Positions 7,355-61,390 of a stretch of 64,000 nt of DNA are shown piece by piece (position 1 is the first letter of the stretch; every line of letters starts with the position of its first letter). The DNA is from Candidatus Curtissbacteria bacterium RIFCSPLOWO2_02_41_11 (GTDB taxonomy: Bacteria; Patescibacteriota; Microgenomatia; Curtissbacterales; GWA2-41-24). Both the position numbers and the translations under genes were made by a program. The notes under the pieces are model-generated. The model saw nothing but the letters and a program-made list of their open reading frames with translations. It searched no databases and was not told where the DNA came from. The stretch is taken from contig MFBU01000009.1 in NCBI GenBank assembly GCA_001775055.1, positions 382 to 64,381 of the forward strand. Reading direction: 5' to 3'.

Positions 7355-8222
7355 ATAGGTTTGACTAAGTCAAGCCCTATAGTGTTAATTGGGGAAGAGA
7401 AGAATTTAACAAATTTCTAATTTCTAAATCCTAACTTCTAAAATTTTAGCTTCAATTTATAAAAAATTCCCGCAAAAAAAATATGATAGAGGAGGCGGAG
7501 TAGGGGGTATAGGTTTACACTGAGCGAAAGCGAAGTGATATAGTTTGATACATTTCGTGAAAACGAGAAGAAAAAAAGCGTGAAAAATTGATCAAGCTAT
7601 AGATTATCAACTATAAGGTTTTAATTACACGGCTAAAAGGATATAGTCAGGTATAAATCAGGTATAAATATAGAGGACTATGAGGCTCTTTATCCTCTAT
7701 AAGTTGTCCAATTTGGCAATTTTAGCAAGCGATGACCATGAATGCTAATGGCTAAAGTGCTGTTTTTGAGGGTTTTTGGGGAGGGGGTCTTTTAGGACAC
7801 AATTGACAATTGACATTTAACCTTTAACATTTTTTTCTACATCTTTTGCACCATTACTCCCCACAGAATAAGGGATAATGTTGCCGTCGCCTATGCGTCG
7901 CACAATGATACTTTTGCGACATAGATTGAGGCCGAGAGAGCAGGCGAAGCTCAATTTTGGTTTCTGGTTTCCAGTTTCAGGTTTCTAGTTATATTATTGT
8001 TGTTTCTTTATTTTTGACTTTTAACTTTTAATTTTTAACTTATCCAGTTTGTTCCATTTATCCCCTATTTGTTTTTATTTGCGTATTTTAGATTCTCTTT
8101 GCTCTTAAATTAATTAAAATAATGGTGGGAAATATCTAATTAATATAAAACGGCCGTTAAAAGGGCAATAATAGGCTTGGTGAACTTGAAAAAGCTTGTT
8201 GGAAAGCCTAAAATTAAAACTT

Positions 8223-10918: not shown

Positions 10919-11100
10919 TTAAGGTTATTTTAGCAGTTTCACCCTGATCATGTCGACTTTACGTCAGTTGTTGGTGAAAATAGGATTTGGGACACAGAGT
11001 CGAAGACCCTGAGCGAGTGAAACGAGTCGAAGGGTCGCAGAATTTTGGGGATAGCTTCCCCACTTCTTGATTTTTACTTTGAGAGCGTCGTACAATTGTA

Positions 11101-11156
11101 ACTGACAACTGACAACTGACAACTGACAACTGACAACTGACAACTGACAACTGACA
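11101..11156 (+). repeat. 8 perfect tandem copies of heptamer ACTGACA ending 3 nt before the xerC-like ATG
   Basis: Counted directly: 56 nt = 8 x 7. Spurious ORFs 10959..11150 and 10964..11239 are artefacts of this tract. Confidence 0.9.
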
Positions 11157-11159
11157 AAA

Positions 11160-12095
11160 ATGGCTTTTGATCTGCCCTCTTTGATTGATGAGTTTTTAGA
11201 GTATTTAGAGATTGAGCGCAATCTCTCCCCTCTTACCATTCGCGATTACCGGCATTACTTAAATCATTTTGCTGATTGGTCAAAAAACCATTCTCCGATT
11301 TTGCGACCTCAGGATATAACAGTCGAGTTAATCCGCAAATATCGAGTGTATTTAGCCCATTACAACAGCCCGAACGGCCAATTACCTCTTAAAAAAGTCA
11401 CCCAGAATTATTATGTTATTGCCTTGCGGTCGTTTCTTAAATATTTAATAAGAAAAGATTTACCGGTGATATCGCCTGATAAAATTGAGCTTCCCAAAAC
11501 CGAAAGCCGTTCTTTGAAGTTTTTGGATCGGGATCAAGTTGATCGACTCTTGGTTCAACCGAATGTATCAAGCGAGCGAGGGATTCGTGATAAGGTTATC
11601 ATGGAGATGCTTTTTTCAACGGGACTTAGGGTTTCGGAATTGTGTCGGCTGAATCGGGACCAAGTTAATCTAGAGCGAGGTGAATTTGGAGTTGTCGGCA
11701 AAGGTCAACGCTTGCGGGTGGTTTTTCTTTCTGATAGGGCTAAAATTTGGCTGGAGAAGTATTTGGCAAGAAGAACGGATAGTTTTAAGCCGCTTTTTAT
11801 TCGGTATGCCGGTAATCAGGAACCTGTGGTTAATGGGGAGAAGATGAGATTGACTCCCCGATCTGTTCAGCGAATCATTGACAAATATGTGCGAAAAGCC
11901 CGTTTGCCGGTGAAGGCCACGCCCCATGTTCTTCGTCATTCATTTGCAACCGATCTTTTAATGAATGGAGCGGATTTAAGATCAGTGCAAGAGCTTTTGG
12001 GTCACAAGAATGTTTCTACCACCCAAATTTACACCCATGTAACAAATCAACAGTTGAGAGACGTACACAAGGCCTTTCATTCAGGGAATAAATAG
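11160..12095 (+). CDS. tyrosine site-specific recombinase XerC/XerD family
   Basis: N-terminal core-binding domain (FLEYLEIERNLSPLTIRDYRHYL) and C-terminal catalytic motifs (RHSFATDLLMNGADLRSVQELLGHKNVSTTQIYTHV). Confidence 0.88.
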   Translation: MAFDLPSLIDEFLEYLEIERNLSPLTIRDYRHYLNHFADWSKNHSPILRPQDITVELIRKYRVYLAHYNSPNGQLPLKKVTQNYYVIALRSFLKYLIRKDLPVISPDKIELPKTESRSLKFLDRDQVDRLLVQPNVSSERGIRDKVIMEMLFSTGLRVSELCRLNRDQVNLERGEFGVVGKGQRLRVVFLSDRAKIWLEKYLARRTDSFKPLFIRYAGNQEPVVNGEKMRLTPRSVQRIIDKYVRKARLPVKATPHVLRHSFATDLLMNGADLRSVQELLGHKNVSTTQIYTHVTNQQLRDVHKAFHSGNK

Positions 12096-12914: not shown

Positions 12915-15900
12915 TTAATTTTTGAAGGTTACATACTGATTCCAGGGAAGAATTTTGAGATCGGCGGGTTTTTTGAGGGAAATTGCCTTGACAAAAAGCT
13001 GAGCGGCTTGCATGTTGGCAAGTAGCGGTATGCCAAAGTCAATTGATGCTCGGCGGATTAAATAATCATCATCGAACTCTTTTTTAAAGTAAGGATCAAA
13101 GATATTGATGACCAGATCAATCTTTTTGGCCAAAAGAAAGTCCAGGACATTGGGTTTTTGATGTTCGTGAATTTTATAAAGTTTGGTAACATCAATACCG
13201 TGGTTTTTGAAAAATTGGGCGGTGCCGGCCGTGGCATAAATTTTAAGACCCATTTTAAAAAGAGTTTTGGCGGCTTCTTGGAATTTGATCTTGTTTTCTT
13301 CACCAGCCAGGGAGATAAAGACCGATTTTTTGGGTAAGGAGACACCGGTTGCTATTTGCGATTTTAAATAGGCCTCATAGATATCATCACCAAAACAGGC
13401 GACTTCACCGGTTGAGGCCATTTCGACTCGCAAAATCGGATCTGCGCCTTTGATACGGGCGAACGAAAACTGGGGAGCTTTGACCGCGACATAATCTGGT
13501 CTCTGGTCTCTGGTCTCTGGTCTCTGGTCAATGCCTAGTATTGCTTCGGTGGCTAATTTGGCAAAGTTGATGCCGGTGACTTTAGAGACAAAAGGAAGTG
13601 AGCGGCTGGCACGCAAATTGCACTCAATAACCATTACCCGGTTGTTTTCGGCCAAAAATTGGATGTTGAAAGGACCAGTGATGTTAAGTTCCCTAGCAAT
13701 TTTTTGGGCAATTTTTTTGATTTGTTCAATTGTTTGAGTGTAGAGCTTTTGGGCGGGCAAAACCATACTGGAGTCTCCGCTGTGTACGCCGGCATTTTCG
13801 ACGTGTTCTATGATCGCCTGACATAAAACTTTGCCGTTTTTGGCCACAGCATCGATTTCGATTTCTTTGGAATTTTGATGGAACTGAGAAATAACTACAG
13901 GGTATTCTGCGGAAACTTGTGAAGCAGCCAAAAGATAAGCTTCAAGGTCCTGCGGGTTAAAGGCCACATTCATGGCTGCTCCGGAAAGAACATATGATGG
14001 GCGTACTAAAACCGGATAGCCGATTTTTTGGGCAAAGACAATTGCCTCCCCGACATTTTTAAGTTTGGCCCAAACGGGTTGAGCGATATCAAGCTCGTCG
14101 CAAAGCTTGGAAAATTTGCTTCTGTCCTCTGCCCTATCGATTGAAGTGACTTTAGTTCCTAAAATTGCCAAGCCCCTTTGGGTAAGTTTGGTGGCCAGAT
14201 TGTTGGGGGTTTGGCCGCCCATGGAAACAATTAGGCCGCTCGGTTTTTCTTTGTGGTAAATTTCTGTGATTGTCTCTTCGGTTAATTCTTCAAAATAGAG
14301 TTTTTGGGCCATGTCAAAGTCGGTAGAAACAGTTTCGGGGTTACAGTTGATAATGATTGTCGAAAAATTGCAACTTTCGGCTGTTTGGGCACAAGTGACC
14401 GAACACCAGTCAAATTCGACAGAGGAACCAATGCGGTAAGGACCGGAGCCCAAGACGATAACCTTTGACATTTGACCTTTGACATTTGACCTTTGACTTA
14501 CAACATCATCTGATTCTCCATTGTAAGTCAGATAAAGGTAATTAGTCTCGGCCGGGTATTCGGCAGCTAAAGTGTCGATTTGTTTGACGGATGGATGAAT
14601 GTCGAATTTGTGTCGAAGTTGGCGGATTTTGTCTTTCGTTGAACCCGTTAAAGTTGTTAATCGTTTATCGGAAAACCCAAGTTGTTTGGCTAAAAGAAGA
14701 GCATCACGGCTATTAAAAGTATCAGGGGTACCATGAGTTTTTTGTTTTGAGACTTTGATACTTTTTTCAAAATCGCAGATATTCTTAAGTTTGTAAAGGA
14801 AGAATGGATCGATACCGGTGGCTTGGGCAATTTTTTCGACGGCAGTTTTTTGGCGGATAGCGCGGGCGATGGCAAAAATCCGCCAAGGGGTTGGTTTGGC
14901 CCAGGAAACCTTTGGTGCCTTTTCATCCAAAATTCCCTCAAAACCGATATCAAGCATACGCACGGCTTTTTGAATTGCCTCTTCAAATTTTCGACCGACA
15001 GCCATAACTTCGCCAACCGATTGCATCGAGGAGCCGATTTCTGTTTGGCTTTTTAAGAATTTGGCAAGATCCCATCTGGGGAACTTGACGACCAGATAAT
15101 CAAGAGCCGGTTCAAAGCAGGCAATGGTTTTTTTGGTAACCGAGTTTTGAAGATCGGTTAGTGAGTAGCCCAGCGCCAATTTGGCGGCAATATAGGCTAA
15201 GGGATAACCAGTGGCTTTGGAGGCCAATGCCGAGGAGCGGGAAAGACGGGCATTAACTTCGATGATGCGGTAGTCGAGGCTGGAAGTGAGAGATGAGAAG
15301 TGAGAAGCTGGATCCCACTTCGGATTTGGGTTCAGAGCGAATTGGATATTGCATTCGCCGACAATACCCAGGTGTCTAATGACTTTGATAGAAATCTCAC
15401 GAAGCTTGTGATATTCGAAGTTGTTAAGGGTTTGGGAAGGAGCAACGACGATTGATTCGCCCGTGTGGATGCCCATTGGGTCGATATTTTCCATGTTGCA
15501 AACAGTGATGCAGTTGTCAAATTTGTCTCTGACTACTTCATATTCAACCTCCTTCCACTTATCGAGATATTCCTCAATTAAGATTTGGCCAACTTTGGCA
15601 AGAGCCCGAGTGGCAATTTCCACAAGTTGTTTTCGATTTTGAGCCATACCGCTGTCTTGACCGCCTAGTGAAAAGCCGCCTCTTATCATTATCGGGTAGC
15701 CGATTGTGGTGGCGACAGCCAATGCTTGTTTGACGGTTTTAACTGCCTGACTTTGAGGGCACTTCAGGTTAATTTGATCTAAGGTGTTGACAAAAAGTTG
15801 TCGGTCTTCAGTCTTCTCGATTGTTTCAATGGATGTTCCTAATACTTCGACTTGGTATTTTTGAAAAATCCGATCCTTGGCCAGTAATAGACCGCAATTT

Positions 15901-16178
15901 AAGGCGGTTTGACCGCCAAAGGAAAGGATAATGCCGTCGGGTTTTTCTTTTTGGATGATTTTCTTAACGAAATAAGGTTCAATTGGCAAGAAATAAACGG
16001 TGTTGGCAAAGCCTTGAGAAGTCTGGATGGTGGCAATGTTGGGATTGACCAGAATGACTTTGATGCTTTCCTCTTTTAAGGCTTTAATGGCTTGTGAGCC
16101 GGAGTAATCGAATTCGCCGGCTTGGCCGATTTTGAGGGCTCCGGAGCCAAGAAGCAGAACTTTTTTGATTTTTTTCAT
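12915..16178 (-). CDS. carB: carbamoyl-phosphate synthase large subunit
   Basis: 1087 aa with duplicated ATP-grasp halves; N-terminus KKVLLLGSGALKIGQAGEFDYSGSQA. Contains in-frame heptamer-repeat-encoded insertions (RPETRDQ repeats; SQRSNVKGQM; HFSSLTSSL). Confidence 0.95.
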   Translation of the reverse strand: MKKIKKVLLLGSGALKIGQAGEFDYSGSQAIKALKEESIKVILVNPNIATIQTSQGFANTVYFLPIEPYFVKKIIQKEKPDGIILSFGGQTALNCGLLLAKDRIFQKYQVEVLGTSIETIEKTEDRQLFVNTLDQINLKCPQSQAVKTVKQALAVATTIGYPIMIRGGFSLGGQDSGMAQNRKQLVEIATRALAKVGQILIEEYLDKWKEVEYEVVRDKFDNCITVCNMENIDPMGIHTGESIVVAPSQTLNNFEYHKLREISIKVIRHLGIVGECNIQFALNPNPKWDPASHFSSLTSSLDYRIIEVNARLSRSSALASKATGYPLAYIAAKLALGYSLTDLQNSVTKKTIACFEPALDYLVVKFPRWDLAKFLKSQTEIGSSMQSVGEVMAVGRKFEEAIQKAVRMLDIGFEGILDEKAPKVSWAKPTPWRIFAIARAIRQKTAVEKIAQATGIDPFFLYKLKNICDFEKSIKVSKQKTHGTPDTFNSRDALLLAKQLGFSDKRLTTLTGSTKDKIRQLRHKFDIHPSVKQIDTLAAEYPAETNYLYLTYNGESDDVVSQRSNVKGQMSKVIVLGSGPYRIGSSVEFDWCSVTCAQTAESCNFSTIIINCNPETVSTDFDMAQKLYFEELTEETITEIYHKEKPSGLIVSMGGQTPNNLATKLTQRGLAILGTKVTSIDRAEDRSKFSKLCDELDIAQPVWAKLKNVGEAIVFAQKIGYPVLVRPSYVLSGAAMNVAFNPQDLEAYLLAASQVSAEYPVVISQFHQNSKEIEIDAVAKNGKVLCQAIIEHVENAGVHSGDSSMVLPAQKLYTQTIEQIKKIAQKIARELNITGPFNIQFLAENNRVMVIECNLRASRSLPFVSKVTGINFAKLATEAILGIDQRPETRDQRPDYVAVKAPQFSFARIKGADPILRVEMASTGEVACFGDDIYEAYLKSQIATGVSLPKKSVFISLAGEENKIKFQEAAKTLFKMGLKIYATAGTAQFFKNHGIDVTKLYKIHEHQKPNVLDFLLAKKIDLVINIFDPYFKKEFDDDYLIRRASIDFGIPLLANMQAAQLFVKAISLKKPADLKILPWNQYVTFKN
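13495..13529 (+). repeat. 5 tandem copies of heptamer TCTGGTC inside the carB coding sequence
   Basis: Counted directly; encodes QRPETRDQRPETRDQRP on the minus strand. Confidence 0.85.
14465..14499 (+). repeat. 5 tandem copies of heptamer TTTGAC[A/C/T] inside carB
   Basis: Counted directly; encodes the VVSQRSNVKGQM segment between the two CarB halves. Confidence 0.8.
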
Positions 16179-17324: not shown

Positions 17325-19997
17325 TTACCTCTTTTTAACTTTTTTGACAACCCTAGTTTTAGTTTTTGGTTTGGCTTTTGGCTTTGCCTTTTTGGCTTTA
17401 ATCTTGAGTTTGTGTTTAGGCCTATTCTTGACTATAGATTTAGTTTTTGCTTTTGGTTTAGGTTTTGGCTTTTGTTGGGTTTTCGTTTGGGCGGCTACCT
17501 TTGAAGATTCGGGTTTTACAGATCCGTTTTCTACCTCCTCATCCTCCTTCTTTTTTTGAATGACAGTGGTGGCTGCGACTTTGTCGCCTACTGACAAGCG
17601 CATAATAATTACGCCCTGAGTATCCCGAGTAAGCCTAGGAATAGACCGTAGAGTTGTCCGCATGACCTGGCCTTTTTGGGAAGTCAAAATTAAGGCTTCA
17701 TCGGCCTTAGTTAGAATTTGGGCGCAGACAATCTCACCGGTTTTTTCGGTTAAGTTTGCCGCTTTTACACCGACGCCACCCCGAAGCTGCAATGGCCAGG
17801 CCAAAACCTGGGTTTTCTTACCAATTCCTTTATCGGTAATGACCAAAAGGTCAGCTTTTACGTCTCCTTTATCAATTACATCCATGCCGATTAGTTCATC
17901 ATTCGGTTTTAGTTTTATGCCGCGAACCCCCATGGTATCCCGAGCCATTGGTCGGACATCTTTTTCAGCGAATTTAATGGACAAGCCGTGCTTGGAAATC
18001 AGAAAAATGAGGTTGTCGCCGGCTGTTAATTTAGCCCAGCGCAGATGATCGCCGGAGGCAAGTTTAATAGCGATTATGCCTGATCTTCTAATCGATTCGT
18101 ATTGGGAAATTGCGGTTTTTTTGACAACGCCGTTTTTGGTTGCCATCAGCACATATTTGTGATTACTGGTCATTTGAGTCTTTTGTTTTTTAACTGGCAA
18201 GATCGATAGAACTTTTTCATTTTGTTGCAGGTCTAAAAGATTGACAATTGCTACCCCTTTGGAAACTCTGGAACTTTCAGGGAGATCATAGACTTTAAGC
18301 TGAAATACGCGGCCTATATTGGTAAAGAAAAGAAGGTTGTCATGGGTGTAGGCGGCAAATAGATGGGCAACGGTGTCCTCTTCTTTGGTGGTGATACCAG
18401 AGATACCCTTGCCGCCGCGGCGTTGAGTGCGGAAAGAAGAAAGATCTTGTCTTTTGACATAACCGCCCACGGTAACGGTAACGATAGTCGATTCATTGGC
18501 AATTAAATCCTCTTCGGAGAATTCACCGATTTTTTGTTTAAACACACGGGTGCGCCTGTCATCGCCGAAACGCTCTTTAAGCTTTAAAAGTTCTCCTTTG
18601 GCGACTGTTAAGATTTTTTCAGGGTGACTCAAGAGATCTTCCAAATAGGTAATTTCCTCAAGAGTCATGGTCAGTTCTTCCTCGATTTTTTGCCGCTCAA
18701 GACCCGAAAGCCTTTTGAGCTGCATATCCAGAATCGCCAGAGCCTGGACTTCGGTTAATTTAAATTTTTGCATTAGGTTGACTTTGGCGACTTGAGGATC
18801 CTGGCTTTTTTTAATGGTTTCGATGACGGCATCAATATTGTCAACGGCAATTTTTAAACCTTCCAAGATATGAGCTCGTTTTCTGGCTTCATCGAGTTCA
18901 AACTGGCTTCTTCTCTTAATGACTTTTTGGCGGTGTTTAATAAACTCACTCAAGATCATTTTGAGGGTTAGTGTTTGGGGAGTGCCATCAACAAGAGCCA
19001 CCATGTTGACCGGGAAGGATTGTTGCAGAGAGGTATGCTTGTAAAGATTATTTAGAACCGATTGCGGGCGGGCATCGCGCTTAAGTTCGATAACAATGCG
19101 CATACCTCGACGGTCGGATTCATCGCGAAGATCAGAAATCCCTTCCAGTTTCTTATCCTTGGCAAGCTCGGCAATTCTGGTGACAAGCGTTGCTTTGTTT
19201 ACCTGATATGGGATTTCGGAAACGGTTATTTGGAATTTAGCGCCTTTTGTTTCTTCAATATCGGCTTTGGCGCGCATTAAAATTTTACCGCGACCGGTGG
19301 CATAGGCGGCTGTAATTTCGGAAATGTCATAGATCTGGGCAGCAGTTGGGAAATCCGGTCCCTTAATATGTTCCATTAAATCCTCGACAGATAATTCCGA
19401 GTTGTCGATTAAAGCGCAGGCGGCATCAATGACTTCTGCCAAATTATGAGGCGGAATGTTGGTTGCCATACCGACGGCGATACCGGAGGCGCCGTTAATT
19501 AAAAGGTTTGGCAAAAGCGCCGGTAAAAATACCGGCTCTTTTAAAGTGCCGTCGAAATTCTCGGTAAAATCAACGGTTTTTTTATCGAGGTCGTAAAGCA
19601 GAGTTTCGGTAATGAGAGCCATGCGAGTTTCGGTGTAGCGCATAGCAGCCGGCGGGTCACCATCGATTGAGCCAAAGTTGCCTTGGCCATCGATTAACGG
19701 GTAACGCATGGAAAAGTCCTGAGCCATGCGCACCAGCGCCTCATAGACCGGAGCGTCGCCATGGGGATGGTATTTGCCTAAAACCTCACCGACAACTTTG
19801 GCGCTTTTGGAGTAGTGGGCACTGTGAGTTGTGCCCATTCGCTGCATGGCGTAGATGATTCGTCGGTGAACCGGTTTTAAGCCGTCGCGAACATCTGGCA
19901 GCGCGCGGGAAACAATAACCGACATAGCGTAGTCGAGATACGACCTTTGCATTTCATCTATAATTTCGACTTGCTGGATTTTGCCGATATCAGCCAT
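17325..19997 (-). CDS. gyrA: DNA gyrase subunit A, with lysine-rich C-terminal tail
   Basis: [21 protein letters not shown] and the rest of the GyrA N-terminus. ~50-aa KPKAKPK-type tail at the C-terminus. Confidence 0.95.
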
Positions 19998-25151: not shown

Positions 25152-25247
25152 GGGTATCACGGGCGCCAAGGGTATCACGAGTACCACAGGCTTAAAACAA
25201 AAAGCTCTTGATACTTTTGGTACATTTGATACCTTTGGTACTCTTAA
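25152..25247. repeat. copy A of a ~95-nt dyad-symmetric intercistronic repeat family (GGGTATCACGAG...AGCTCTTGATAC...GGTAC arms)
   Basis: Shares >60% identity and the same arm order with the copies at 37605, 40886 and 50511. Confidence 0.7.
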
Positions 25248-25254
25248 CATAAAC

Positions 25255-27580: not shown

Positions 27581-27946
27581 TTGGAACCAGACACAGTAAA
27601 TTTTAGATTCTTAAATTTTAAGGTCTACAAAGACGCAAAAAAATTTTATCATGAGATTGTTAGGATAACTGCTAACTTTCCTAGGCAATATTGGGAGTTG
27701 GGAGACCAGATGAGAAGAAGCGCTCTTTCTGTAATTCTTAATCTAGCAGAGGGTTCAGCCAAGAAGTCAGACAGAGATTTTAACCGTTACATTAAAAATA
27801 GTTTAGGGTCAATAAATGAGTGCGCAGCGGGTATTGACGTGGCTTTTGGCGAAAAACTTGTAAATGAGGAGGTTTTTAAAAATCTAATGATTAAAGCGTC
27901 AGAAATCGCAAATCAATTAGGCGGGTTCTCAAAATCTTTGAGGTAA
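27581..27946 (+). CDS. four-helix-bundle protein (23S rRNA IVS protein / Avd-like family)
   Basis: FRFLNFKVYKDAKKFYHEIVRITANFP...RRSALSVILNLAEGSAK...SLGSINEC fits the TIGR02436/Avd pattern. TTG start. Confidence 0.75.
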   Translation: MEPDTVNFRFLNFKVYKDAKKFYHEIVRITANFPRQYWELGDQMRRSALSVILNLAEGSAKKSDRDFNRYIKNSLGSINECAAGIDVAFGEKLVNEEVFKNLMIKASEIANQLGGFSKSLR

Positions 27947-28124
27947 CTCGAAACATTAAACCTTAAACTTGAAACCATAAACTGAACAGAGACTAAGTGG
28001 TGGTAGCTTGTGAAGTATTTCATGTTTCCAGTTTATTGTTTCCTGTTTCACGTTAGGTATCTTGACAACAGTTAACTTATCCCCAATACTTAAATAGAAG
28101 AGGAAATTTGAAAAGTTTATCCTC

Positions 28125-29152: not shown

Positions 29153-29920
29153 GTGGTTTTATTTCTTATTCTCTTTTTTATTCTAGGAACCGCCGTTGGC
29201 AGTTTTTTGAATGTGGTTATTGACAGGACTACTCAAGGCCAGTCGATACTCGGCAGGTCTTATTGCGATTACTGCCGCGCGACGCTTGGGGTAGTCGATC
29301 TTATTCCCATTTTAAGTTTTACGGCGCTTTCTGGCCGATGCCGGCATTGTCGAAAAAAACTTTCATGGCAATATCCAATTGTAGAGACGGTGACAGGCTT
29401 ACTTTTTGTTCTCTCATTTCTTATATTGACAGTAAGTGGCCAGCTTACGATTACTACTCTACTCTACTATTTTTTTCTCATATCAATTTTAATCGTGGTG
29501 GCGGTTGTTGATTTTAAATTCTCGCTAGTACCGACAACTTTGGTTTTTTTGGCATCACTGCTCGCGCTTTTTTATAATTATTTTTTTCTAACATCAGGTC
29601 AATTTGTCCAAAGTGTAGCGGCAGCATTTGGCACAGCTGTTTTTTTTCTGGTGATTGTTATTTTAACTCGCGGCCGGGGCATGGGCGAAGGCGATGTGGT
29701 GCTTGGTTTTTTGATCGGCATGGTTTTGGGCCTAAAAGAGTCGGTGCTGGCCATATTTCTGGCGTTTTTAATAGGAGCAATTATTTCACTTTTTCTTATA
29801 ACACTTGGCAAAAAGCACTTTGGTCAGACTGTTCCCTTTGCCCCGTTTTTGTCTTTGGGATTTTTGATTAGTCTTTTTTGGGCAAAGGAGATTATTAACT
29901 GGTATTTAATGCTATATTGA
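29153..29920 (+). CDS. pilD: prepilin peptidase (A24 family) PilD
   Basis: GSFLNVVIDR...CDYC...CRHC zinc-binding N-terminus and a polytopic membrane domain. GTG start. Confidence 0.88.
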   Translation: MVLFLILFFILGTAVGSFLNVVIDRTTQGQSILGRSYCDYCRATLGVVDLIPILSFTALSGRCRHCRKKLSWQYPIVETVTGLLFVLSFLILTVSGQLTITTLLYYFFLISILIVVAVVDFKFSLVPTTLVFLASLLALFYNYFFLTSGQFVQSVAAAFGTAVFFLVIVILTRGRGMGEGDVVLGFLIGMVLGLKESVLAIFLAFLIGAIISLFLITLGKKHFGQTVPFAPFLSLGFLISLFWAKEIINWYLMLY

Positions 29921-29924
29921 TGTT

Positions 29925-30539
29925 ATGAGGAAGGGTTTTGGTCTGATCGAATTTATGATCGTGATTACGGTTTTTGGAATCGCGACTGCCGTTATCACCG
30001 CCTCATTTTTAACATTTGAGCGCAATCAACGCCTAAAAAGCGCCGCCAGTATGTTAAAAAATGACATCAGGCTAATTCAAAACAAGGCACTCGGTGGGGA
30101 TAAAAGTACACCTAACTGTTCCAAAGTAACCGATCCTGCTCCGGTTTTGGTTGGTTGGTACCTGAACGTGGTTAAAGGTTCGAGTGAGTATACGTTAAAT
30201 AGCGATTGTAGAAATAAAGATAGTATTGAAGACCCTGATATTCTAATTAAAATTGTTTCATTGCCACGGGGGGTTAAAATTAGCGATGTACAATACGGGA
30301 ACAGTTCTCCTGTTTCAAAGGATGCCATCAACGTTTTATTCCAACCTTTAACACATAACACATCATTCCATGATGCTTTGCTGGCAATTACTCCCCCTTT
30401 TCTTGATAATTCGGGAAATCTAAAAGATCTATTGGGTTCATTACCTCAGGAAATGCTTAGTATTATTTTAGCCGGAGACCAAGGTGGAACTTATAAAGTT
30501 ATTGTCCAGCCTTCAGGAGAAGTTAATGAGCAAAAATAA
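29925..30539 (+). CDS. pseudopilin/minor pilin with prepilin-type N-terminus
   Basis: MRKG|FGLIEFMIVITVFGIA. Confidence 0.75.
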   Translation: MRKGFGLIEFMIVITVFGIATAVITASFLTFERNQRLKSAASMLKNDIRLIQNKALGGDKSTPNCSKVTDPAPVLVGWYLNVVKGSSEYTLNSDCRNKDSIEDPDILIKIVSLPRGVKISDVQYGNSSPVSKDAINVLFQPLTHNTSFHDALLAITPPFLDNSGNLKDLLGSLPQEMLSIILAGDQGGTYKVIVQPSGEVNEQK

Positions 30540-31017
30540 GCCAGATACCAGATACCAGATACCAGATACCAAATTTCTCGGTCAATCTCTCATCGAGGTT
30601 GTCATCGCCATGGCTGTTATTGTCGGTTTGGCTGTGGCTTTGGTGACTACGACTTTGGTTGTCCAGAAAGCATCAAGGACGGCCAAAAATAATACTCAGG
30701 CTACGAAGTTAGTCCAGCAAAATATCGAGCAGGTAAGAGTTTATAGGGACCGCAAAGGCTATGCTTCTATCCCCGATGGAGGTAGCTGTTATACACTATC
30801 CTCAGGTGATCCAGATCCCCTTAGCTGGTTCTTTTCTGCTTCTTTTGACTGTTCTGGAAGTGGGCAGCAAATTACTTTGGGTAAGACCAATTTCGACAGA
30901 AAAATAAAGATTGAAACTGATGCTAGTACAAAAAAGGTTACTGTTACCGTTTCTTGGACAGATTCTGGCGGAACCCAGTCGGTTAGTAATCAAACCATTC
31001 TATCTTCAGGCCTCTAG
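30526..31017 (+). CDS. minor pilin-like protein; leader region contains 4x heptamer CAGATAC
   Basis: ...KFLG|QSLIEVVIAMAVIVGL prepilin-like. ATG 30526 preferred over the track start 30484. Heptamer tract at 30541-30568. Confidence 0.65.
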   Translation: MSKNKPDTRYQIPDTKFLGQSLIEVVIAMAVIVGLAVALVTTTLVVQKASRTAKNNTQATKLVQQNIEQVRVYRDRKGYASIPDGGSCYTLSSGDPDPLSWFFSASFDCSGSGQQITLGKTNFDRKIKIETDASTKKVTVTVSWTDSGGTQSVSNQTILSSGL

Positions 31018-31061
31018 GTTTTTTTGCCTCTCGAATCCTCATTTGTGGTAAATTGTAATTA

Positions 31062-31739
31062 ATGCCCTTCCATAAAGTATCTAGTATCTGGTATCTAGTA
31101 TCTGGTATTAAATATACTAAATACAAAATACTAAATACAAAATACTGTAAAACCAAAGGCTTTACCCTCATTGAGCTTTTGGTTGTTTTGGGGATTTTGG
31201 CGGCGGCTGTTGGGGCTTCCATGATTTTTCTTACCTCTGTTTTAAAAGGGACTAATCAGGCTAATGTGACGGCCGAAGTTAAGCAAAACGGCCAAGTAGT
31301 TTTAGATTCACTGGAAAAACAGATTCGTGGTGCTACTGATGTGGAGTGTGCCAATAGTGCGGGGAACTCCGTTGATTGTTCCGATGCATCTGCTTCTCTT
31401 AAATACTTAAAGCTTGTGAGATCGGATGAAGACCCGTTACATATCGGGTGTTTTTTGGATAGTCTACCCAAAACAGAAAATGGCTGGATAGGCATTGTTG
31501 AGTCAGCTCTAGCTTATCCTTCATCAACAAACTATGTATCGGTTACAAATAAAGATGCTATTTCAGGAGTTGATATTCAGGATTGTAATTTTAAGGTATC
31601 CTCTGCATCTTCTGGAACAACTTCGCCATCGGTAGTTTCCATTAGCTTTATAGTCAATCAAGGAATTGACGCACCTTCACGCGCGGATTTTTTGGCTAAT
31701 GCTAAATTCGAGACGACGATATCGCTGAGAAACTATTAA
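31062..31739 (+). CDS. pilin-like protein with unusually long, repeat-encoded leader
   Basis: ...CKTKG|FTLIELLVVLGILAAA. The 33-aa leader is encoded by heptamer/14-mer tandem repeats at 31080-31145. True start uncertain. Confidence 0.65.
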   Translation: MPFHKVSSIWYLVSGIKYTKYKILNTKYCKTKGFTLIELLVVLGILAAAVGASMIFLTSVLKGTNQANVTAEVKQNGQVVLDSLEKQIRGATDVECANSAGNSVDCSDASASLKYLKLVRSDEDPLHIGCFLDSLPKTENGWIGIVESALAYPSSTNYVSVTNKDAISGVDIQDCNFKVSSASSGTTSPSVVSISFIVNQGIDAPSRADFLANAKFETTISLRNY

Positions 31740-31832: not shown

Positions 31833-32618
31833 ATGAAAAAGAAGAAGGGACAGGTTTTGGTACTTGTTTTATTGGTTGTCGTAGTAGCCTTGGCTGTTGG
31901 CCTTTCGGTGGCTAGCAGAAACCTGACCAATCTTAGAACGACTACTCAAACCGAACAGTCTCAGAGAGCCTTTAATGCAGCCGAAGGCGGGATAGAGAGT
32001 ATTCTTCCAAATTTAGCTACAGTTGCGGAAGGGCCTCAACCAGCAATTCAAGTGGGTAATCTTGAAGCCAATGTCACTGTTAATAAAGAGACTGAATACT
32101 TCTGGACGATTCCAGAAGGAGAAGTTGGTCAGGTTAAATTGGATGACGCAACCGGTAGCCCGACTGAGATTCAAATTGAGTGGGTCAAAACCGGTGATCC
32201 TCAAGAAGATCCGACACCGCCGCTCAGCGGTACTCCTGCCTCGGTTGAGATTACGAGAATCGATGAGACTGCAGGTAATTTTACCCAACAGAGATTTGCC
32301 TTGACAGGTGGATCGGCAGGGGTAAACGAGCAGGGTTTTGATTCTCCAAGTAATTGTTCTGCCGACTTTGTGAAATGTACAAAAATTGGTTTTCCAAGTA
32401 ATTCGCGAATTTTAAGAATCAGACCCTTTTGGAATCAGGCGACGGTTAAGGTAACATCTGTTGGCGGTAGCCTTCCCGATCAGCAATATACTATTACTTC
32501 ATCGGCAACGTCCGAACTTGGATTGACTAGAAAAATTGAAGTTACCAAAACAGTTTTGCCGCAGCTGCCGGCGGTTTTTGACTATGTTTTGTATTCTGAA
32601 CGAGATATTGTTAAGTAA
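31833..32618 (+). CDS. hypothetical membrane-anchored protein in pilus locus
   Basis: N-terminal transmembrane segment VLVLVLLVVVVALAVGL, rest T/S/G-rich. Confidence 0.55.
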   Translation: MKKKKGQVLVLVLLVVVVALAVGLSVASRNLTNLRTTTQTEQSQRAFNAAEGGIESILPNLATVAEGPQPAIQVGNLEANVTVNKETEYFWTIPEGEVGQVKLDDATGSPTEIQIEWVKTGDPQEDPTPPLSGTPASVEITRIDETAGNFTQQRFALTGGSAGVNEQGFDSPSNCSADFVKCTKIGFPSNSRILRIRPFWNQATVKVTSVGGSLPDQQYTITSSATSELGLTRKIEVTKTVLPQLPAVFDYVLYSERDIVK

Positions 32619-32647
32619 CAACTGACAACTGACATTTGACAAAAAAT

Positions 32648-38243: not shown

Positions 38244-38405
38244 ATAAATAATTTAAAATTTAAAATTTAAAATTTTTTCTACCACCTACTAACTATCTAA
38301 CTACAAACTAATCTGGGGTATCAAGGAGTCAAGGGATCAAAAAATTGCTTTTGGCTCTTTGACTTTTCGATACCGGTTGGCATTATATCAGAAATAGCTT
38401 TGTCG

Positions 38406-50510: not shown

Positions 50511-50608
50511 GTAAGAGTACCATGGGAATCAAGGGTATCAAGAGTATCATGAGCTTTTTGATTTATAGCTCTTGGTACCCGTGGTACTCTTGGAACCCGT
50601 GATACTTT
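50511..50608. repeat. copy D of the dyad-symmetric intercistronic repeat, filling the rpmI–rplT spacer
   Basis: AGAGTACCATGGG...GGGTATCAAGAGTATCATGAGC...AGCTCTTGGTACCCGTGGTACTCTTGG; long imperfect hairpin. Confidence 0.75.
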
Positions 50609-50805: not shown

Positions 50806-50846
50806 ATTCGAACTTTAAACTGTAAACTTTAAACTTGAAACTAATT

Positions 50847-55047: not shown

Positions 55048-55452
55048 TTACTTTTCAAAGCTAATATCAAGTTGGACTTGGGGAGACGCTAATTTTTTTT
55101 GATAGTCGCGAAAATTATCGAGTTGATTATTATAAGTTTCTATTTCTTTTGAAAGATCGGCAAATTGCGGATTAATCAAAGACTTGGGACTGGTTGTTGT
55201 TGTTAGCGGTGGAGGTGCCGTGACGATTTCGTCTTGGCCTTTTGATGAAAGCAAAAGCAATCCGAGGTAAATAACAAAAATAAGACCAACAAGACTAACC
55301 AAGGTAATTAACTTTGGCTTTTTAAGCGTAAGATGAATCTTAATTTTCGGCAGTTTCAGCTTAGGACATTCATTTTTCTGATTAACTGGTTCTGAAATGT
55401 TCTCTTCAGTAATGATTTCTTGTTCCATTGGGCCGGTACTTTCAATGTTCAT
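55048..55452 (-). CDS. hypothetical single-TM membrane protein
   Basis: Transmembrane segment LITLVSLVGLIFVIYLGLLLL; 4-nt overlap with the upstream gene. Confidence 0.5.
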   Translation of the reverse strand: MNIESTGPMEQEIITEENISEPVNQKNECPKLKLPKIKIHLTLKKPKLITLVSLVGLIFVIYLGLLLLSSKGQDEIVTAPPPLTTTTSPKSLINPQFADLSKEIETYNNQLDNFRDYQKKLASPQVQLDISFEK

Positions 55453-56297
55453 AGAATTCCGATTACCTCCTTAAATAAAGGTTTTGACCTCAGAAGTTCA
55501 TTTTTAGCAAGTTGGGCAAAGCTTGAAATGTCTTTAAGTTCGTCCCCAGACGCTGTTTGCTCTTTGGTTTTTTCAAGTAATTCTTTTGCTTTTGTCAGGT
55601 AATTTTGGGTTTTAGCCTTGATATTTGTGATTTCCGAGATCCAGTTGGCAAGGATCGATTGGTTTTGGTCTTTTTCAATTTTTGATGTGATAATTTTGTC
55701 CAAATCTCGGGCGAGTTTGTTGAAATCGGCAATTGCCGACTGTGCTTCAATTACCTCGAAAGTAGCCAAAATTTTATTGATTTTTAGATTAAATTCTTTG
55801 TCACGGTGGCTGCGAAGATCAGTTGCCAGATCGGGTAACTGCTCAAGAGTTTTGGCATCTTTAACTTTTTTTCGGTGATTGTCAAAAAAGGCAATTTCCT
55901 CATCAATAATTTGATTGATATGATCTTTTGAGATATCGCTATTTTGCCAACCGAGGCTGTTGCCGTTTTCATTAACTAAAAATAAATAGGCGTGATAAAG
56001 ATCGTCGATTTTTAAAAGGTAATCACTGGTTGCAAGATAGGCATTATTTTTGGCAGTTGCCGTCTGAAAAGTTAGATAACTTGAGCGAGCATTTATATAC
56101 TTATTTTGTGCTTCTCGATACTTAGTGAACTGGAAAGTATAGTCGTTTTGAGCTTTATCAAGCGCAGTCAAAGGCACAGGTGACTGCGCCAGTGAATAGT
56201 TAATAGTCAATAGTGAATAGATTGCGAGTAGTATAAAAAGTTTGATAAATGTATGGACTATTTTGTTTTTGAAATTAGAAATTTGAAGAGTGGGCAT
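55449..56297 (-). CDS. hypothetical secreted/membrane-anchored coiled-coil protein
   Basis: N-terminal signal/anchor FIKLFILLAIYSLLTINYSLA. Confidence 0.5.
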   Translation of the reverse strand: MPTLQISNFKNKIVHTFIKLFILLAIYSLLTINYSLAQSPVPLTALDKAQNDYTFQFTKYREAQNKYINARSSYLTFQTATAKNNAYLATSDYLLKIDDLYHAYLFLVNENGNSLGWQNSDISKDHINQIIDEEIAFFDNHRKKVKDAKTLEQLPDLATDLRSHRDKEFNLKINKILATFEVIEAQSAIADFNKLARDLDKIITSKIEKDQNQSILANWISEITNIKAKTQNYLTKAKELLEKTKEQTASGDELKDISSFAQLAKNELLRSKPLFKEVIGIL

Positions 56298-60580: not shown

Positions 60581-61390
60581 TTATGGGCGAGTTCTGTCGA
60601 TTGCTGCTTGATGGGCTTGCCATTCGATTGAATCATCAAGTGGCTCAAGTTTTACCTTGCCGTAACGTCGCTCTAAAGCCTTTGAGATTAAGAAGTCTGC
60701 AAAATGGGGATTTTTGGGCAGAAGTGAACCATGTAAATAACAGCCGAAGGCATTTTTATAGATTGCTCCTTCTGTTTGGTCTTCCCCATTATTGCCTGTA
60801 CCGATAATTACTTTGCCAAGCGGCTGGACTGCTTGGTCTAGATAAGTTTTGCCGCTATGATTTTCAAATCCTATTAAGTTAGTTGTCAATTGTCCGTTGT
60901 CAATTGTTGGATAGATTTCCTTAATTTCCTTTACTAAATTTTCTTCCAAGTCTATCCACAGGTTTTGGATCATGCGATCATGTGAGCCGATGGTATAAGC
61001 ATTAAATAGACCAATGCCTTTGATGATTTTCCCATCAAGAGTTTTAAAGTACTTTTGAAGTAGTTGATAGCCGCCACAAATTGATAAAAGGACACAACCA
61101 TTCTCAATAGCTTTTTTAAGATAATTAGCCTTAGATTGCAGATCACGGCCGACAATTATTTGCTGTCTGTCTTGACCTCCGCCGAAGAAATAAAAGTCCC
61201 AGCCGAGGGCTGGTCCGCCTTTGGCGGAAAAATCAGATAGCGAATCCCCTACACTGATATTGGTAATTTTTACATTTATCCCCCGCCATTGGCATCTCTT
61301 AACAAGATCGATGATATTACCTTTGTCTCCATAAGTGTCCATTAAATCAGGGTACAAATGACAGATATTTAGGCTTATTGGTTTTGCCAT
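60581..61390 (-). CDS. gatD: lipid II isoglutaminyl synthase glutaminase subunit GatD (CobQ-type GATase)
   Basis: ...ICGGYQLL... catalytic Cys context and ...GCYLHGSLLPKNP His. Overlaps murT. Confidence 0.75.
   Translation of the reverse strand: MAKPISLNICHLYPDLMDTYGDKGNIIDLVKRCQWRGINVKITNISVGDSLSDFSAKGGPALGWDFYFFGGGQDRQQIIVGRDLQSKANYLKKAIENGCVLLSICGGYQLLQKYFKTLDGKIIKGIGLFNAYTIGSHDRMIQNLWIDLEENLVKEIKEIYPTIDNGQLTTNLIGFENHSGKTYLDQAVQPLGKVIIGTGNNGEDQTEGAIYKNAFGCYLHGSLLPKNPHFADFLISKALERRYGKVKLEPLDDSIEWQAHQAAIDRTRP

Follow-up and report, generated by a model that had tools for sequence, protein, structure and literature searches.

In the candidate phyla radiation (CPR), where gene regulation is almost unknown, host attachment and DNA uptake are believed to depend largely on type IV pili. 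This study concerns three tandem repeat arrays within the leader-coding regions of two pilin genes, called here gene 1 and gene 3, in a 64-kb stretch of DNA (the window, whose coordinates are used throughout) from Candidatus Curtissbacteria (Microgenomates/CPR). The homologues of the window genes carry the name of this organism, and exact copies of the window proteins were found in groundwater-type metagenome assemblies. The three leader arrays are local members of a genome-wide class of heptamer arrays and are not specific to pilins.

The Pilus Cluster and Its Leader Arrays

The type IV pilus cluster has the order pilB, pilT, pilC, a gene for a 23S rRNA intervening-sequence protein, two pilins, pilD, three minor pilins, a PilX_N protein, pilM, pilN and pilO (positions of the relevant features in Table 1). 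Gene 1 itself gave no match in the Pfam search; some of its homologues are named pseudopilin PulG, PilV or type II secretion system protein, and all of them have G/A↓QSLIEV (↓, cleavage site) with Glu(+5). By inspection, the cleavage motif of gene 1 is G↓QSLIEVVIAMAVIVGLAVALV, while the mature part of gene 3 begins FTLIELLVV and its motif is G↓FTLIELL. The sequence marks of PilD substrates, namely Gly(−1), Glu(+5), an N-terminal segment of about 20 hydrophobic residues and a nearby pilD gene, are present for both genes (by Pfam for gene 3 and by inspection for gene 1). Both products are therefore putative PilD-type prepilins, and PilD is the enzyme expected to take off both leaders.

Table 1. 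Features of the pilin locus and selected heptamer arrays elsewhere in the window.
Feature	Position	Strand	Description
Prepilin peptidase PilD (A24 family)	29153–29920	+	Pfam A24_N_bact 1.4e-28, Peptidase_A24 1.3e-13
Upstream minor pilin	29925–30539	+	Leader MRKG↓FGLIEF; Pfam N_methyl 3.4e-05
Shine-Dalgarno sequence AGGAG	30515–30519	+	6 nt 5′ of ATG 30526; direct sequence reading; recurs in gene-1 homologues of other species
Gene 1, pilin-like	30526–31017	+	163 aa, MSKNKPDTRYQIPDTKFLG↓QSLIEVVIAMAV...; list of open reading frames (ORFs); 85 homologues
Array 1, (CCAGATA)x4.4	30541–30571	+	Tandem Repeats Finder (TRF), 100% matches; encodes PDTRYQIPDT of the leader
Predicted extended −10 element TGgTAAATT	31046–31054	+	Ends 7 nt before ATG 31062; TGgTAAATT-N7-ATG at 31046–31064
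Gene 3, minor pilin	31062–31739	+	225 aa, leader MPFHKVSSIWYLVSGIKYTKYKILNTKYCKTKG↓FTLIELLVVLGIL; Pfam N_methyl 1.4e-06 at residues 30–52
Array 2, (GTATCT[A/G])x4.7 as period 7	31076–31108	+	TRF; 5′ arm of local hairpin
Array 3, (ATACTAAATACAAA)x2.4 = (ATACTAA ATACAAA)x2.4	31114–31146	+	TRF; 3′ arm of local hairpin with array 2
Longest perfect array in the window, (AACTGAC)x8.3	11100–11157		Separated by 2 nt from the ATG of a XerC/D-like tyrosine recombinase gene (11160–12095)
carB	12915–16178	−	Pfam CPSase domains; three in-frame heptamer arrays (13495–13529, 14461–14497, 15283–15307)
Degenerate TTTGGCT array in the gyrA C-terminal tail	17363–17399	−	gyrA 17325–19997; 38 nt from gyrA 3′ end
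Array in ORF 55449–56297	56191–56220	−	Within the hydrophobic stretch of a putative signal peptide (..LLAIYSLLTINYSLA↓QSP)

In gene 1, the leader runs from ATG 30526 to the Gly(−1) codon (30580–30582) of G↓QSLIEV and has array 1 inside it. In gene 3, it runs from ATG 31062 to the Gly(−1) codon (31158–31160), and arrays 2 and 3 in this interval encode most of the 32 residues before Gly(−1). These positions confirm a first-pass annotation of the window, which had placed the tracts inside the leader-coding regions of two adjacent prepilin genes, 5′ of the cleavage site. TRF and the raw sequence also confirmed the three repeats themselves, with coordinates 1–3 nt off. The tract given as CAGATAC x4 at 30541–30568 is array 1 read one base later in phase, GTATCT[A/G] x4 at 31080–31107 is array 2 misplaced by about 3 nt, and the 14-mer x2 at 31113–31142 is array 3, which is slightly longer. 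Array 2 can also be described as a perfect 14-mer GTATCTAGTATCTG (GTATCTA GTATCTG) repeated 2.3 times at 31077–31108 (TRF), so that a 14-mer duplication is common to both hairpin arms. Two things had been overlooked: array 1 is the reverse complement of array 2 (30541–30569, 29 nt, 93%, 507 nt apart), and arrays occur throughout the window.

Translation of the Arrays

As far as sequence comparison can show, the arrays are translated as leader codons. The placing of the tracts in coding sequence and not in a 5′ untranslated region (UTR) is borne out by conserved start codons, by the lack of an in-frame ATG, GTG or TTG between the arrays and Gly(−1) in either gene, and by the open alleles of relatives. 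The ATG of gene 1 lies inside the conserved 3′ end of the upstream minor pilin gene (...TCAGGAGAAGTTAATGA), an arrangement that recurs across species; the upstream gene overlaps the start of gene 1 and supplies its Shine-Dalgarno sequence, and this overlap (...GGAGAAGTTAATGA) is kept in relatives.

For gene 3, ATG 31062 is the sole in-frame start (ATG, GTG or TTG). Its ATGCCC context is conserved across species, and no Shine-Dalgarno sequence could be read before it. The putative promoter was found through a cross-species alignment of start contexts. Of 43 unique ATGCC-start alleles, 41 have a TAnnnT hexamer 5′ of the ATG, its end being 7 nt away in 37 and 8 nt away in 4, and the TG extension is present in 30, against background rates of 9.6% for TAnnnT and 0.9% for TAnnnT with TG. 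A scan for consensus sigma-70 promoters, which needs a −35 box, did not report it. Because the −10 element ends 7 nt before the ATG, the mRNA of gene 3 is probably leaderless; a −10 element about 7 nt 5′ of the AUG and the lack of a Shine-Dalgarno sequence are the marks of leaderless mRNAs, and gene 3 has both. A conserved leaderless promoter signature is thereby obtained for a minor pilin. The same start context, TAAAAT-N7-ATGCCC, was seen at ORF 55449–56297 on the minus strand, which encodes a protein of unknown function.

A leader survey at the DNA level, independent of gene calls, covered 24 species-representative genomes and 78 metagenome loci and gave 126 unique leader regions. Every assessable allele among them has an in-frame start, two of them using GTG at the conserved position. 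The leaders of relatives have a conserved N-terminus (M-K/S-x-N-x-K or MP..) followed by 7-residue periodic peptides (SVVSCQLSVVS, NFQFSIFNFQFS, SKLQTPNSKLQTP), which are translated heptamer arrays, and relatives without arrays have minimal leaders (MKANHKG↓QSLIEV, MPKG↓YTLIEF, MRRRG↓FTLVE). Leaders of the gene-1 family are 3–67 aa long, and those of the gene-3 family 4–65 aa.

Unit variants are placed exactly where a stop codon would otherwise arise. Unit 2 of array 3 is ATACAAA where ATACTAA would put TAA in frame, unit 2 of array 2 is GTATCTG where GTATCTA would put TAG in frame, and locus L013 has one AAACGCT unit amid TAACGCT units at the point where the stop would be in frame. CCAGATA, the unit of array 1, has no stop in any of its three phases. 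The repeat-built leaders explain why gene callers mis-start these pilins. Three short gene calls were considered as frameshifted (OFF) alleles and rejected: P0045 and P0181 are in frame and owe their truncation to the start chosen by the caller, and P0220 is truncated by a gap of N letters.

A Genome-Wide Class of Heptamer Arrays

The window contains 22 period-7 arrays of at least three units, compared with 0.3 in shuffled sequence. Period 6 is modestly enriched (9 vs. 1.9), and periods 4, 5, 8 and 9–12 are not clearly enriched. About 30 TRF rows in the window are such arrays, and 11 of 20 period-7 arrays fall in the intergenic 10% of the window. Others lie within genes (Table 1). The carB arrays encode peptides such as DQRPETRDQRPD and SQRSNVKGQMSKV, and the first two of them (13495, 14461) are located between Pfam domains.

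Many arrays in spacers are paired. Inverted heptamer pairs were found as (AAACNNN)5 ... (GTTTNNN)5 at 27951/28018, with a similar pair at 50811/50846, and inverted period-9 pairs with GGTATC/GATACC-type units at 25152–25250, 38320–38375 and 50513–50606. A dispersed element family is suggested by the likeness of the period-9 pairs at 25152 and 50513. A small number of unit families also returns at unrelated sites (7799–7815, 14461–14497, 32618–32642, 60881–60907 and many other loci) and in different species; one example is TTGACAN/GTCAANN, which contains the −35-like hexamer TTGACA. The CCAGATA unit of array 1 is one base off the carB unit CCAGAGA. A lineage-wide repeat class reshapes N-terminal leaders up to 67 aa and enters essential enzymes. 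The literature searched contained no account of heptamer arrays in Patescibacteria/CPR, nor of prepilin leaders built from repeats.

Heptamer arrays also stand on both sides of the 23S rRNA intervening-sequence protein gene (27581–27946; PF05635, 7.9e-25), which lies between pilC and the major pilin genes. The start of this gene differs between gene callers (78 aa vs. 121 aa).

Unit Number and Reading Frame

All counts given here are of assembly alleles, as assemblies provide a consensus sequence only. The claim of the first-pass annotation that unit loss or gain flips the frame is correct for a change by one or two units; gene 1 is in frame only with 1, 4 or 7 units of array 1. Four units (in frame, ON) make up the majority allele, which is that of the window, of 18 fetched loci and of about 45 contigs where gene 1 is called at 163 aa. 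A one-unit allele (−21 nt, in frame, leader MSKNKPDTRFFG) occurs in L002, L045 and L125. The two-unit allele (−14 nt) is that of L120, which is 99% identical over 2.7 kb and has its sole indel there. In L120 the loss puts the conserved ATG of gene 1 out of frame, and no start codon lies in the 36-nt open stretch of the mature frame. This is the only OFF contig among about 70 contigs of the strain group, and none was seen among the assessable ones of the relatives' 126 alleles. Between ON alleles, the difference in length is 7 aa (three units) in each of two independent allele groups.

Copy-number variation, proposed as a check at read or population level, is seen for array 1 among assemblies of near-identical strains, one unit giving a short in-frame leader and two units frameshifting gene 1. 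No such variation was found for arrays 2 and 3, which are invariant in 24 assemblies or loci; a tally of identical arrays gave 22 loci for arrays 2 and 3 and 18 for all three. Related leader alleles accumulate point mutations without a change in length, as seen in the leader series and in L047, which keeps four units with a point mutation. Perfect tracts in either leader family reach at most 5.4 units, with medians of 1.4 and 2.1; array 1 has 4.4 perfect units. Arrays 2 and 3 are also present, base for base, at L019 3000–3150, where the two arms are set apart by an insert of 54 nt and are preceded by a different promoter.

Changes of this kind are also found outside the pilin genes. In L137, the (TCTGGTC)x5 array of carB has a −7 nt frameshift allele, which splits carB into ORFs of 935 aa and 168 aa just before the MGS-like domain, and L135 shows a +1/+2 compensated frame change in the same array. 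The perfect (AACTGAC)x8 array at 11100, taken as a control for mutability, is invariant in five related loci.

Two further observations were made at the locus. L041, a metagenome contig, has an 8-nt deletion in gene 1 at 30906, which gives a frameshift independent of the repeat, and an in-frame 18-nt deletion in the PilX_N gene at 32199. In two older scaffolds, gaps of N letters abut pilin-leader arrays (L010 4426–4440, L119 1409–1463); these may reflect assembly trouble from inverted arrays or heterogeneity.

Probable Exchange of Leaders and Spacers

Whole leaders differ between close relatives. L002 is 98.7% identical to the window up to the ATGCCC of gene 3 and 81–87% identical thereafter, and its gene-3 leader consists of unrelated arrays, (GTTAACA/GTTCACA)x4 then (AACCGTG)x3, in frame. 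P0210 (L121, L123) has the mature gene 1 of the window with a different leader array, (CAGTTGT)n, giving MSKNSKSVVSCQLSVVSRPA↓QSLIEV, and a divergent upstream gene. Conversely, P0087 and L042 carry the gene-3 leader of the window on a mature part that is 68–70% identical. A spacer behaves in the same way: L004, 99.7% identical elsewhere, has an unrelated heptamer hairpin, (AAACNNN)5 + (GTTTNNN)3, in the pilB-pilT spacer, with a few flanking single-nucleotide polymorphisms (L004 2046–2102 vs. window 25152–25254). By these comparisons, leaders and spacers behave as exchangeable cassettes, and the conserved codons of the N-terminal helix are likely recombination anchors.

Secondary Structure

When 31040–31175 was folded as RNA, arrays 2 and 3 formed a local imperfect hairpin (pairing 31076–31146) of −25 kcal/mol (z −2.7; 3 of 200 shuffles as good). 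With 30500–31180 folded as one RNA, both the minimum free energy and the centroid structures pair array 1 with array 2 (z −3.7, 20 shuffles). This combination of arrays is strain-specific: in L047, array 1 occurs with another gene-3 leader, and in L019, which has arrays 2 and 3, array 1 is missing. Most gene-3 alleles contain inverted array pairs, though their units are unrelated, and the best duplexes reach −10 to −30 kcal/mol, a qualitative result only, as the test was contaminated by split detections of single arrays. In L011 the ATG is in the loop between two arms, and only the second arm is translated. Gene-1 leaders showed no excess structure.

In 53 of 70 leaders, folding is better for the antisense than for the sense strand (p = 3e-6), the controls show the opposite, and the mismatches of the sense strand are mostly C·A, not G·U. 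Because of this asymmetry, sense-strand RNA pairing appears relaxed and not favored, which fits inverted arrays that arise at the DNA level better than a selected mRNA hairpin; it also weakens the idea of a sense-strand RNA stabilizer. Assignment to a known RNA family was rejected as well. Rfam gave no family match, and its sub-threshold microRNA-precursor matches on both strands at 31078–31144 merely reflect the hairpin shape.

Origin and Meaning of the Leader Arrays

The account that we favor, with some confidence but no certainty, is that the leader arrays are frame-constrained, slippage-prone insertions of the genome-wide heptamer class into a disposable leader. The genome is peppered with short heptanucleotide arrays, very often as two mutually inverted arrays around a short spacer, and the three leader arrays would sit where almost any sequence can be tolerated in a type IV pilin gene, that is, in the N-terminal leader predicted to be cut by PilD. 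Translation would proceed from the conserved starts, at an ATG coupled to a Shine-Dalgarno sequence in gene 1 and at the ATGCCC behind the extended −10 box in gene 3. Selection would act only on the reading frame and on the absence of stop codons, leaving leaders of very different length with a 7-residue periodicity. Occasional slippage would add or remove units, with in-frame changes of three units persisting and changes of one or two units giving rare null alleles. As one- and two-unit changes give only rare nulls and in-frame changes persist, slippage would be a property of the repeat class and not a dedicated high-frequency pilin switch. The anatomy of the arrays, their translation as judged by conservation, the frame constraint, the genome-wide distribution and the rare unit polymorphism are direct observations of this study; from them we infer that the arrays are tolerated, not selected.

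Several findings weigh against this account. A natural frameshifted allele of gene 1 exists in L120, made by the exact loss of two units, and array 1 contributes 2 of about 8 indel events across about 13 kb in near-identical strains. The gene-3 leader regions are more structured than coding sequence of equal length from the same genes, with z < −2 in 22 of 69 vs. 2 of 69 (Wilcoxon p = 5e-5). L019 shares arrays 2 and 3 base for base with the window, at a mature protein of 49% identity. This identity and the excess structure both hint at more constraint than tolerance alone would bring. Finally, cleavage of the 19-aa and 32-aa leaders by this PilD is only predicted.

The first two findings would be expected of a true contingency locus, in which array 1, and perhaps also arrays 2 and 3, would undergo slipped-strand mispairing that turns the minor pilins ON and OFF frequently and adaptively, for example under phage or host-cell pressure on the pilus. 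The tract has the right architecture, with a unit not divisible by three, inside the ORF and 5′ of the functional part of the protein, between start codon and cleavage site. The assemblies contain natural alleles of 4, 1 and 2 units, the last one OFF without an alternative start, indels are concentrated at array 1, breaks in two older scaffolds fall at the arrays, and the deletion in L041 disrupts gene 1 as well, so the gene may be dispensable. Nevertheless, we regard this explanation as unlikely, and the term classic contingency locus used in the first-pass annotation overstates the case. The tracts are short, and long perfect hypermutable tracts are absent from the locus. Known contingency tracts, such as the Haemophilus and Neisseria loci, are usually much longer. 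ON and OFF alleles are not both common here, the assessable alleles of relatives are in frame, arrays 2 and 3 do not vary in 24 loci, and copy number is kept while units decay by point mutation. Moreover, the repeat class is genome-wide, an equivalent unit-loss frameshift affects carB, which has no obvious reason to switch, and a perfect array of eight units stays invariant. The result is a warning against naming every 5′ heptamer tract a contingency locus. At the same time, the natural alleles of 4, 1 and 2 units are concrete material for asking whether slippage was co-opted for phase variation in an uncultured phylum.

The excess structure of gene-3 leaders would in turn be explained if the arrays were selected nucleic-acid structures, with leader coding incidental: the array 2/3 hairpin, at +15 to +85 of the putatively leaderless gene-3 mRNA, or in this strain the long-range helix of arrays 1 and 2, would tune translation or mRNA stability. 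The stability of the local hairpin, the array 1/2 pairing in both predicted folds, the recurrence of inverted pairs with unrelated units, the ATG in the loop of L011, the conserved spacing of −10 box and ATG and the 14-mer duplication shared by the arms are all in keeping with this. Yet the antisense strand is the better folder, about two-thirds of the alleles have z > −2, the array 1/2 combination is strain-specific, and gene-1 leaders and Rfam lend no support; we find this explanation doubtful, slightly more so than the contingency locus. An invertible DNA switch is the least probable of all. The 29-nt inverted repeat of arrays 1 and 2 flanks the body of gene 1 and could invert a 507-bp segment with its mature part, but about 45 independent contigs show a single orientation, the inverted product would by our reading give neither gene a meaningful ORF, relatives lack the inverted-repeat combination, and no recombinase is adjacent, the nearest tyrosine recombinase being about 19 kb off at 11160. 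Neither the two orientations nor the dedicated recombinase of an invertible switch was found, and inversion was rejected. Hardly more credible is an untranslated 5′ UTR with true starts 3′ of the repeats. The missing Shine-Dalgarno sequence of gene 3 and the callers that start P0045, P0181, P0214 and P0220 within the mature region would agree with it, but neither gene has an in-frame start codon between the arrays and Gly(−1), a later start would delete the cleavage motif and the Glu(+5) helix, the upstream starts with their contexts are conserved and the alleles open through the arrays, and the short calls are caller choices or N-gaps, except the genuine frameshift of L120.

Beyond the account of tolerated insertions, a broader and speculative proposal, which we hold to be improbable, is that Curtissbacteria, and probably other Microgenomates, possess an undescribed and actively turning-over class of "periodic palindromes" (paired, mutually inverted arrays of units of 7 or 9 nt). 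These would be exchanged as cassettes between strains and species and would prefer the 5′ end of leaderless minor-pilin mRNA inside disposable leader codons. There they would work through structure and slippage together, as one module by which the expression of the minor pilin is set or switched.

Comparison With Known Systems

Simple sequence repeat contingency loci include Neisseria opa (CTCTT), the Haemophilus tetranucleotide loci, and the heptanucleotides of H. influenzae HMW1/2 and E. coli K1 neuO. The leader arrays share with them a unit that is not a multiple of three near the 5′ end of a surface-structure gene, where a unit change shifts the frame, and one OFF allele was found. They differ in their four-unit tracts, in the rarity of OFF alleles, in a copy number kept over deep divergence and in the presence of the same repeat class in housekeeping genes and spacers, and they are known here from assembly sequence.

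Type IVb prepilins and other long-leader prepilins (class III signal peptides) likewise have Gly(−1), Glu(+5), a hydrophobic helix and an adjacent PilD, and the leaders of genes 1 and 3 are within the type IVb range of length. In contrast, leader length is hypervariable here within one orthologous family, through repeat insertion. Extragenic palindromes of the repetitive extragenic palindromic (REP) and bacterial interspersed mosaic element (BIME) type are similar as imperfect palindromes that fill spacers, and the spacers here are replaced between close strains (L004). Here, however, there is no shared consensus, and the arms are tandem arrays of period 7 or 9 that also occur within coding sequence.

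The short tandemly repeated repetitive (STRR) heptamers of cyanobacteria are dispersed, belong to several unit families, have few copies per array, are mostly intergenic and are of unknown function. The arrays of the window differ from them in phylum and units, the units of STRR1-3 of heterocystous cyanobacteria not being found here, and in having paired inverted arms and in-frame coding arrays. They are alike in forming many dispersed, mostly intergenic tandem heptamer arrays of few copies, and by this comparison the cyanobacterial STRR sequences appear to be the known repeats that the class resembles most closely.

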